64,000 bases of DNA. It comes from a virus. The number at the start of each line of letters is the position of its first letter. Position 1 is the stretch's first letter. The stretch is from positions 32,001 through 96,000 of the IMG/VR virus record IMGVR_UViG_3300032316_000329. One strand, written 5' to 3'. The notes beneath the pieces were generated by a model, which was not told where the DNA came from, made no database searches, and saw only the letters and a list, made by a program, of their open reading frames with translations. A program made the position numbers and the translations under genes. Shown one piece after another: positions 4,414-6,853 of the stretch.

Positions 4414-4442
4414 TTGACAACTATATATTTGGAGTATATAAT
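4414..4442 (+). promoter_or_regulatory. sigma70 early promoter
   Basis: perfect TTGACA-N17-TATAAT. Confidence 0.85.
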
Positions 4443-5275: not shown

Positions 5276-5344
5276 TGGTTCAACAGACCATCGTGGTGTT
5301 GCTGCACCACAAATGGAAGAGTTTGAGAACCAAGTAGAATAAAC

Positions 5345-5375
5345 TTGCCAAAAATTTCAATATATGTTATAAATA
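5345..5375 (+). promoter_or_regulatory. overlapping sigma70 and T4-late promoter for the tmRNA
   Basis: TTGCCA-N17-TATAAA with TGn extension; the -10 box is also TATAAATA (5368-5375). Confidence 0.65.
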
Positions 5376-5380
5376 TATCT

Positions 5381-5622
5381 GCTTAGGTCGTTGAGAGACG
5401 TAGAATAAGCGGAAGAGACCTCGGGGCGGTACCGAGCGGGTCCACCATAAGCACATTAAGGTATGTTTAATTGGGCCCGAAATAGGATTGATCTACGTGG
5501 TAAAGGCGTAAGGAGACCGAAAGCAAACGTTAGGTGCCAACGATAACATTGCACCATTTGATATTGCTCTAGCAGCATAATCATTGGGCTGGTGACTTGC
5601 CTAGAAACAGAAAAGTCACACC
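5381..5622 (+). ncRNA. ssrA: two-piece (circularly permuted) tmRNA, alphaproteobacterial type; tag ANDNIAPFDIALAA
   Basis: T-arm CTCGG-GGCGGTA-CCGAG; 3' acceptor strand CGGGTCC-A-CCA (CCA 5445-5447) precedes the 5' strand GGGCCCG (5473-5479) giving G3.U70; GAAATAGGATTGA D-loop analog; tag ORF 5536-5580 ending ALAA-stop; inter-piece pairings ACGTAGA/TCTACGT and GCTTAGGTC/GACCGAAAGC. Confidence 0.92.
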
Positions 5623-5669
5623 TTTTCCATCACTGTGTTTTACCGCACATGCAAAATTGACTCTTCCAT

Positions 5670-5702: not shown

Positions 5703-5804
5703 ATGATTACCTTACTAAAAACCACCTTGACAGTTCTAGTAGTTTCTGCTATAATCTTTCCTGTAATGACACTTGCCGCACACGCACAAGTCATTTTCTG
5801 CTAA
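5703..5804 (+). CDS. 33-aa hydrophobic/signal-peptide-like microprotein (not in ORF track)
   Basis: AGGAGAG RBS; MITLLKTTLTVLVVSAIIFPVMTLAAHAQVIFC. Confidence 0.45.
   Translation: MITLLKTTLTVLVVSAIIFPVMTLAAHAQVIFC
5727..5755 (+). promoter_or_regulatory. sigma70 early promoter for gp33-gp59
   Basis: perfect TTGACA-N17-TATAAT with TGn extended -10. Confidence 0.85.
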
Positions 5805-5820
5805 TACATAGGACTATATT

Positions 5821-6045
5821 ATGACAACTGATGAAATCAATAACTTTTCCATGGCCATAGAGGAACTTGTCTATATGAAGGACGTTCCTTATATTGATGC
5901 AATTGTTATGTATTGTGAAGAAACAGGATTTGAAGTTGAAATGGCCGCCAAACTGGTCTCTGGTGTTCTAAAATCCAAAATTAGAATTGAAGCGGAAGAC
6001 CTTCACTATATCGCAAAGTCAAACACCTCAAAACTACCAATCTAA
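5821..6045 (+). CDS. gp33: late-promoter transcription co-activator
   Basis: FSxxIEELV...YIDAIVxYCEE...LKSKIxxEA; synteny with gp59-gp32. Confidence 0.85.
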   Translation: MTTDEINNFSMAIEELVYMKDVPYIDAIVMYCEETGFEVEMAAKLVSGVLKSKIRIEAEDLHYIAKSNTSKLPI

Positions 6046-6048
6046 ACT

Positions 6049-6660
6049 ATGAAACATTTCACCGGATATGGTGCTTATCTATTGTTCTTGGCATTAAGAA
6101 CCCATTTCACTAATGCCAAGTATGATTTCTTTCAAATGCATGGTAAACTCCGTGCAACAAAGGAGTCTTATATAAAACGCAATGATAAGTCCTTCTTTGA
6201 CAAACTGGCCAGAGATTATTCCTGTGAGAATTTGAGAGACTTTTATGTTGCCAACTTTCTTGAAGATAAACACTATGTAACGGAGTTATTAGATGATACC
6301 GCCGAACGAAACTACCGAGAATATCAGAGAAGAAGGCAGTCCCTCACATATATCTTTACCAGCGAATTGGAGGAGTTATTTGATAGTGGTATTACAAGGC
6401 CTTTTAAATTTAACGATGGCGAGTATCCTGATATTGTCAATCTGTATCTTAGGCATGTCCTCTCTCCCGAAACTCTGGTAATCATAAACGATTTTATACC
6501 CTTTGAGGATAAGTTTAATAAATACCTTAGTGATGATATATTATGGTCTAAGGTATCGTTGAAACTTAGAAAATATAAACCATTCGTTCATTATGATAGG
6601 AATAAGGTGAAATCTATCCTCAAGGAGAAATTACATGATACTAGAGGGAGAAGCATCTGA
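6049..6660 (+). CDS. gp59: helicase loader
   Basis: YLLFLALRTHFT...YDFF...KRNDKSFFDKL; position between gp33 and gp32. Confidence 0.85.
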   Translation: MKHFTGYGAYLLFLALRTHFTNAKYDFFQMHGKLRATKESYIKRNDKSFFDKLARDYSCENLRDFYVANFLEDKHYVTELLDDTAERNYREYQRRRQSLTYIFTSELEELFDSGITRPFKFNDGEYPDIVNLYLRHVLSPETLVIINDFIPFEDKFNKYLSDDILWSKVSLKLRKYKPFVHYDRNKVKSILKEKLHDTRGRSI

Positions 6661-6824: not shown

Positions 6825-6853
6825 TTGACAGGGGCCCTGGCCCCTGTTATAAT
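6825..6853 (+). promoter_or_regulatory. sigma70 promoter of gp32 with palindromic spacer
   Basis: TTGACA-N17-TATAAT; ACAGGGGCC-CT-GGCCCCTGT inverted repeat; ACTAAATA late motif at 6813-6820. Confidence 0.85.

Follow-up and report, generated by a model that had tools for sequence, protein, structure and literature searches.

A two-piece tmRNA of the Caulobacter type was reportedly described by Keiler, Shapiro and Williams in 2000. Among phages, the closest described systems are the two-piece, alpha-type ssrA genes of the OM43 phage Melnitz and of pelagimyophages, located directly upstream of the gene for the late-transcription coactivator (Buchholz et al. 2022, PMC9004378). According to the same work, a tmRNA gene is present in 402 of 18,146 phage genomes, a share stated there as 2.3%, with 133 unique structures; 50 of the 53 two-piece phage tmRNAs come from aquatic phages, and 17 of 47 related contigs carry a two-piece ssrA. 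The host of Melnitz is a non-alphaproteobacterial methylotroph, though its tmRNA is of the alpha type; its ssrA promoter was called early by the authors, and a glutamine riboswitch behind ssrA is common but not defining (PMC9004378). The phage two-piece class was already published in 2022 in related aquatic phages (PMC9004378), and what is new here is a late-promoter box common to the whole family, an RNA much reduced in respect to the bacterial ones, and a pmoC phage as the carrier.

The window analyzed here is a stretch of 64,000 nucleotides, bases 32001-96000 of a 165,114-bp IMG/VR virus record (CheckV completeness 99%), and the carrier is a large T4-like freshwater (lake) myovirus. Its genome also encodes pmoC, and it thereby belongs to the 'pmoC phages' that Chen et al. 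(2020, PMC7674155) described for methanotrophs of freshwater; in the description of these phages, main text and supplements, the term tmRNA has no occurrence. The tmRNA gene is surrounded by the genes for PhoH, a PDDEXK exonuclease, gp33, gp59, gp32, the baseplate hub, and the tail tube. Outside the window, the genome carries a full-length gene for an FtsH-type protease (618-aa ORF, G000:C1:122492-123046). ARAGORN with default settings finds only five tRNAs in the whole genome. Its calls are four normal tRNAs (Gly, Arg, Glu, and Pro) and, at G000:C1:131472-131543, a tRNA-like gene whose 'anticodon' is undetermined and given as two bases (cc).

A phage-encoded, permuted tmRNA of the alpha type had been proposed for this locus by a sequence-only reading, and at the level of covariance models and directly read anatomy the assignment of positions 5381-5626 (+ strand) as a circularly permuted, two-piece ssrA gene is confirmed. 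The Rfam alpha_tmRNA model (RF01849), named in that reading as a check, matches with 103.3 bits (E 4e-27, span 5341-5622, cut-off 50), and the tmRNA_permuted model (RF04321) with 90.6 bits (span 5386-5580, cut-off 47). The beta, cyano, and standard tmRNA models (RF01850, RF01851, RF00023) show no match at the locus, so the alpha type holds at the covariance-model level. The other check named there, ARAGORN, failed at default settings (0 genes in the window); at -ps80 it reports the same tag among 30 false calls, which is not useful evidence. The single-sequence fold of the RNA is not unusually stable (z = -1.04). The features of the locus are collected in Table 1.

Table 1. Features of the tmRNA locus and its downstream neighbours, in window coordinates.
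Feature	Position	Strand	Remark
-35-like hexamer TTGCCA, sigma-70 type	5345-5350	+	17-nt spacer to TATAAA
Extended -10, TG-n-TATAAATA	5365-5375	+	T4-type late-promoter box at 5368-5375
Acceptor piece, ~67 nt	5381-5447	+	5' end placed by the promoter position and the covarying pair 5382-5383 with 5522-5523
P2, 3' strands	5382-5383, 5386-5389, 5398-5401, 5409-5416	+	in acceptor piece
Invariant loop GUUGAGAG	5390-5397	+	in acceptor piece
T-arm CUCGG / GGCGGUA / CCGAG	5420-5436	+	read from sequence
T-loop GGCGGUA	5425-5431	+	alpha-type loop
Acceptor 3' strand CGGGUCC	5437-5443	+	read from sequence
Discriminator A (A73); encoded CCA	5444; 5445-5447	+	read from sequence
Intervening segment, 25 nt	5448-5472	+	presumed removed during maturation
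Coding piece, ~150 nt	5473-5626	+	from acceptor 5' strand through U-tract
Acceptor 5' strand GGGCCCG	5473-5479	+	read from sequence
D-loop analogue	5480-5491	+	in coding piece
P2, 5' strands	5492-5524	+	in coding piece
Tag frame ANDNIAPFDIALAA, 14 codons	5536-5580	+	resume codon GCC 5536-5538, last codon GCA, stop TAA 5578-5580
Hairpin across last tag codons	5565-5577	+	in coding piece
3'-terminal hairpin, 7 bp, loop with CCUAGAAACAGAA (5600-5612)	5592-5619	+	all 7 pairs covary
U-tract (UUUU)	5623-5626	+	follows 3' hairpin
Separate perfect sigma-70 promoter for next gene: TTGACA, 17 nt, TATAAT, with TG	5727-5755	+	
gp33-like late-transcription coactivator, downstream syntenic neighbour	5821-6045	+	phrog_254, E 2e-19; 35% identity to Melnitz gp33
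gp59-like helicase loader	6049-6660	+	synteny anchor for fetching relatives

The circular permutation is seen in the order of the parts, with the CCA (5445-5447) upstream, followed by the spacer (5448-5472) and then by G1 at 5473. The positions that had been read from the letters alone for the CCA, the 25-nt segment, GGGCCCG at 5473, the GGCGGUA T-loop, and the tag ANDNIAPFDIALAA were all correct. The acceptor stem is formed by seven pairs, including G5475:U5441, the G3:U70 pair from which alanine identity had been deduced. The intervening segment contains no ORF and forms a small hairpin in the single-sequence fold prediction. Nucleotides 5382-5383 pair with 5522-5523 and show C:G to U:A covariation, which puts the start of the acceptor piece at ~5381, 6 nt past the promoter box. 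At the other end of the gene, the near-invariant loop of the 3' hairpin fits the alpha_tmRNA consensus CCUGGCAACAGAA, and the UUUU that follows the hairpin, together with the next gene's own sigma-70 promoter (5727-5755), indicates that the tmRNA is a separate transcription unit.

The PK1 pseudoknot matters in E. coli. Here only 11 nt separate the last P2 pair (5524) from the resume codon, and therefore a classical PK1 is not evident. A candidate 4-bp hairpin that would present the resume codon is unconvincing, being paired in only 65% of the cells of the alignment described below. Pairing of the GUUGAGAG loop with the CUCU at the tag end was rejected by eye, as the partner varies and the loop is invariant. 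A possible 3' pseudoknot between GGG 5586-5588 and CCU 5600-5602 involves only invariant bases and thus carries no covariation signal.

In respect to the bacterial alpha tmRNAs (RF01849), the phage RNA shares the permuted order, the G3:U70 pair, a CCA that is encoded or nearly so, the T-loop GGCGGUA, an ANDN...AA-type tag, and a CCUGGCAACAGAA-like loop in the 3' hairpin. It is, however, ~110 nt shorter (~246 nt for the phage gene and ~360 nt for the bacterial ones) and scores 103 bits to the model, whereas the bacterial alpha tmRNAs reach about 200-317 bits. The 5' hairpin and the outer P2 pairs are missing, and so is most of the stretch linking P2 to the tag and most of that linking the tag to the 3' hairpin. 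Also unlike in the bacterial case, the promoter is of the phage late type and no smpB is linked to the gene. The lack of smpB in the window, noted from the sequence alone, extends to the whole 165,114-bp genome, in which SmpB (PF01668) has no match at E values up to 1; SmpB must then come from the host. When 400 sampled alphaproteobacterial genomes, among them one unpublished genome (G045) that no claim depends on, were searched with the RNA by BLAST, no close match or donor emerged (best E 1e-7), and the partial matches (68-95% identity) cover short stretches, mostly of the tRNA-like domain. A scan of bacterial contigs with a 16-base pattern gave 120 loci, none of which matches the tmRNA profile; these are chance matches and offer no host lead.

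The likeness to Melnitz EXVC044M (MZ577097) is closer. Its ssrA lies in the same slot, in the order PhoH, PDDEXK nuclease, small ORFs, ssrA, gp33, gp59, and gp32, and scores 106.7 bits to RF01849 in comparison with 103.3 bits for the window RNA, both being of the two-piece alpha type. The promoter layout is shared as well (TTGACA, 17 nt, and TATAAATA in Melnitz), the tag ANDNYVPVDYALAA is similar to that of the window, the 3' hairpin loop is AAACAGAA in both, and smpB is neither reported nor found in either phage. The two genes differ in the spacer, which is 25 nt in the window, whereas that of Melnitz has roughly 140 nt and contains an ORF-like frame; in the glutamine riboswitch, which is present behind the Melnitz ssrA and gives no RF01739 match in the window at the gathering threshold; in the motif GGUCGUUGAGAG, which is specific for the freshwater group and found in the 5' P2 region of the window RNA, unlike in Melnitz; and in the host, probably an alphaproteobacterial methanotroph for the window phage and OM43 for Melnitz. 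Divergence of the freshwater group from Melnitz, with GGUCGUUGAGAG in P2, explains why a blastn search of 50,697 phage records with the locus as query gave no match. From gene order and sequence likeness, the window gene is best described as the orthologue of the Melnitz ssrA, passed down in a lineage of aquatic T4-like phages to which the pelagimyophages also belong, and the shared slot points to a heritable phage gene rather than a fresh capture from a host. The class of two-piece alpha-type tmRNAs of aquatic T4-like phages is extended in this way to the pmoC phages of methane-oxidising bacteria. Other phage tmRNAs, many of which are one-piece and one of which (DS6A) is tag-less, are likewise phage-borne and dependent on host SmpB; the window gene is permuted and encodes a tag.

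The same RNA occurs on more than 100 IMG/VR contigs. The 16-base pattern taken from it was found on 115 viral contigs, nearly all of them true homologues by nhmmer, and at the IMG/VR loci fetched with gp59 as an anchor the RNA lies upstream on the same strand in 9 of 11 cases, the remaining two being too short upstream. Fifty-five distinct full-length copies were aligned with MAFFT, without structural guidance. RNAalifold recovers from this alignment the acceptor stem, the T-arm, the P2 helices, the tag-end hairpin, and the 3' hairpin, with compensatory changes in 32 of the 46 predicted pairs. In an explicit model of 43 pairs, 91.1% of the cells are paired, in comparison with 72.1% in column shuffles and 33-48% when the partners are slid by 1-3 columns, and none of 500 shuffles reached the observed covariation score. 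The acceptor stem, T-arm, and P2b are paired in 100% of the cells; each of their variable pairs has changed in a compensatory way in 1-27 of the 55 sequences (23-27 double changes per pair in P2b). In the case of P2a the value is 77%, because the alignment register is uncertain there, and in the 3' hairpin (5592-5619), with compensatory changes at all seven pairs, it is 87%. The G:U pair at 3:70 is kept in 55/55 copies, in agreement with the proposed alanine identity. The tag frame, (A)ANDN...AL(A/V)A with 13-15 codons and a stop, is likewise intact in every copy, and the ending of the window tag, ALAA, bears out the LAA end that had been read in it. Thirty distinct tag peptides are found among the 55 copies, with fixed ends and variation only in the middle. 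These patterns argue that the RNA is functional and under both structural and coding constraint, and the set of 55 sequences gives, as a lead, a natural minimal tmRNA with defined covarying helices.

The permuted order is present in all relatives, with spacers from ~22 to 242 nt, so that the 25 nt observed here are near the minimum. The relatives concerned are L112:3204-3540, L037:1175-1494, L002:2453-2753, L070:11523-11926, L108:4126-4590, and L091:2549-3015. Inside 4 of the 55 spacers there are perfect T-arm-like hairpins, one or two per spacer, each with a stem of 5 bp and a loop of the UUCRAUU type; they may be extra handles for RNase P/Z or tRNA remnants; the longest spacers of the family contain ORFs of ~68 codons. 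In a comparison of window 5381-5626 with L003:2511-2756, the acceptor pieces show one difference and the spacer and P2 strand match, with differing tags and 3' hairpins; the 3' hairpin of the window tmRNA is common to L006 (L006:2018-2291) and L114. Such a mosaic suggests recombination inside the gene.

These data bear on the view that the locus is a passive host fragment, either a recently captured host ssrA or the remnant of an integration site with no role of its own. Genes for tmRNA are common integration sites, and fragments of them occur in prophages (PMC9004378). The gene described here is, however, complete and located within a lytic T4-like genome, its position is conserved out to Melnitz, the RNA has diverged from the bacterial alpha tmRNAs, and it appears to be under structural and coding selection. 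The passive view is already contradicted by these sequence patterns, and we give it almost no credence.

We favour, with a probability of about 0.8, a working two-piece tmRNA that would perform ordinary trans-translation on host factors, the phage adding an extra and probably late-timed tmRNA. Sequence and comparison show one transcription unit, from the promoter at 5345-5375 to the hairpin and U-tract at 5592-5626, which encodes in order the 3' half of the tRNA-like domain with its terminal CCA, the 25-nt spacer, the 5' half, and the 14-codon tag; the two halves are joined by the 7-bp acceptor stem with G3:U70 and by the long covarying P2 helix. By analogy with established tmRNA biology, host RNase P would cut before G5473 and the tRNA 3'-end enzymes would trim to CCA5447, leaving an acceptor piece of ~67 nt and a coding piece of ~150 nt base-paired together. 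Host AlaRS would then charge the RNA with alanine through G3:U70, and host SmpB (assumed to be compatible) and EF-Tu would deliver it to ribosomes stalled on broken mRNAs. Translation would resume at GCC5536 and append ANDNIAPFDIALAA, and the ALAA end would mark the product for ClpXP-, Lon-, or FtsH-type proteases of the host. Late infection would be the time of peak structural-protein synthesis and of mRNA breakdown, at which such an RNA could free ribosomes and recycle truncated products. Nothing in the finding overturns the current understanding.

The reduced architecture and the lack of a phage smpB would also suit an RNA that acts as a decoy, competing for SmpB, AlaRS, or ribosomes and so blocking host trans-translation; a precedent is the tag-less tmRNA-like RNA of mycobacteriophage DS6A, as cited in a passage of PMC11915505. 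A decoy would have no need of a tag, and the frame, the resume codon, and the stop are kept in 55/55 copies, with changes in the middle of the peptide and fixed functional ends, which makes this explanation very improbable in our judgement.

The timing that is part of the preferred reading, a working tmRNA used late, is suggested by the promoter region. The promoter was described earlier as fitting both the sigma-70 and the phage late consensus, and this is what is found (TTGCCA, 17 nt, TG-n-TATAAATA). The late box NATAAATA (once CTAAATA) ends 9-11 nt before the first helix in 54/54 relatives with enough upstream sequence, and a T4-type box so conserved suggests mainly late synthesis of the RNA during infection. 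A -35 hexamer, scored as present at 5 or more of 6 matches to TTGACA, is found at 16-17 nt in only 20/54 of them; in the others, the preceding gene ends in these upstream bases. The -10 element of the window is TATAAA, with the final T missing. In the whole genome, 32% of the ATAAATA and 43% of the CTAAATA words lie 10-60 nt upstream of an ORF start, in comparison with 0-12% of the control words, which is consistent with [AC]TAAATA behaving as a late-promoter word in this phage. TATAAATA shows no over-representation in the window, with 6 occurrences for 9 expected, and the late reading draws on the conservation of the box and on the wider [AC]TAAATA pattern, not on the frequency of TATAAATA. 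What is conserved would then be late expression, and a subset of phages, the present one included, would have early expression in addition; here the -35 hexamer may also allow early transcription. The expression throughout infection suggested by the sequence-only reading is to be qualified accordingly, only the late box being universal among the relatives. The promoter element conserved in the lineage is thus the late-type box, in contrast to the early promoter assumed for Melnitz.

A more specific version of the favoured reading can be put forward tentatively, as rather unlikely in all its parts together. In this large group of aquatic T4-like phages the gene would be transcribed late through gp55/gp33 from NATAAATA, the product would be a minimal tmRNA of ~217 nt that functions without the usual pseudoknots, and its role would be that of a phage-tuned device for quality control and amino-acid recycling during the burst of late protein synthesis, possibly together with the phage FtsH in those phages that encode one. 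If true, this RNA would be a natural minimal tmRNA, and the time at which trans-translation acts in such phages would be defined.

The phage protease enters also into another explanation, according to which the phage RNA replaces a host tmRNA depleted or cut during infection, by a defence nuclease or by RNA decay that the phage induces, or its phage-specific tag switches the protease used, e.g., to the phage FtsH. The phage tag ANDNIAPFDIALAA differs from the tag ANDNYAPVAVAA of the methanotroph genome matched by its PmoC (see below), the middle of the tag varies widely among the phages (30 peptides), and this genome has a full FtsH gene, as do 3 of the 5 other phages with a tmRNA that were searched (four IMG/VR relatives and Melnitz). 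Against it, FtsH was not found in the remaining two, G839 and Melnitz, ordinary bacterial tags have the same ANDN and ALAA ends that are fixed here, and the cutting of a host tmRNA by defence nucleases, raised also by the sequence-only reading, is speculative. We consider replacement or retargeting improbable, less so than a decoy. E. coli FtsH degrades SsrA-tagged proteins, so a link between FtsH and the tmRNA is possible and not obligatory; obligatory coupling is rejected by its absence from G839 and Melnitz.

The tmRNA had also been taken to identify the host group. The type of the tmRNA alone is, in our reading of the sequences, a weak and not a safe host marker, because the gene is inherited among phages, the host of Melnitz is not an alphaproteobacterium, and the 400 sampled alphaproteobacterial genomes hold no close counterpart; a gene that travels with the phage lineage makes host calls from tmRNA type unreliable. 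For an alphaproteobacterial host, a methanotroph, pmoC offers independent support. With the phage PmoC, scores of 481-514 bits are obtained to 3rfr, 4phz, 7s4m, and 3chx, which we take to be Methylocystis/Methylosinus enzymes, and 330-345 bits to 1yew, 7ev9, and 6cxh, presumably gammaproteobacterial enzymes. The phage PmoC is 89% identical to the three PmoC copies of one Rhizobiales methanotroph genome (G775), found among genomes sampled from the GTDB order to which a Rhizobium belongs. The tmRNA of that genome (301 bits, tag ANDNYAPVAVAA) is not notably nearer to the phage RNA than the tmRNA of Rhizobium. Among the tmRNA-bearing relatives, pmoC is present at 90-91% identity in two others and lacking in three. 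A permuted ssrA with the GGCGGUA T-loop and an ANDN tag was regarded before as characteristic of Alphaproteobacteria. This T-loop is present here, but it is not fixed in the family; in the two other relatives with pmoC, which is of the alpha type, the loops are UUCGACU and GGCAGUU, and hence GGCGGUA is no sign of the host group.

Perfect 12/12 sigma-70 promoters (TTGACA, 17 nt, TATAAT) are found at three sites on the + strand, 4414-4442, 5727-5755, and 6825-6853, preceding the exonuclease, gp33, and gp32 genes, respectively. The gp33 promoter is located inside a hydrophobic ORF of 33 codons (MITLLKTTLTVLVV...) at 5703-5804 (+), between the tmRNA and gp33. Peptides similar to it (M..LKIYLT....VA.ILPIMT...) occur downstream of the tmRNA in L023, L104, and L120; the ORF may encode a real small membrane protein, or the likeness of the peptides may be imposed by the promoter.
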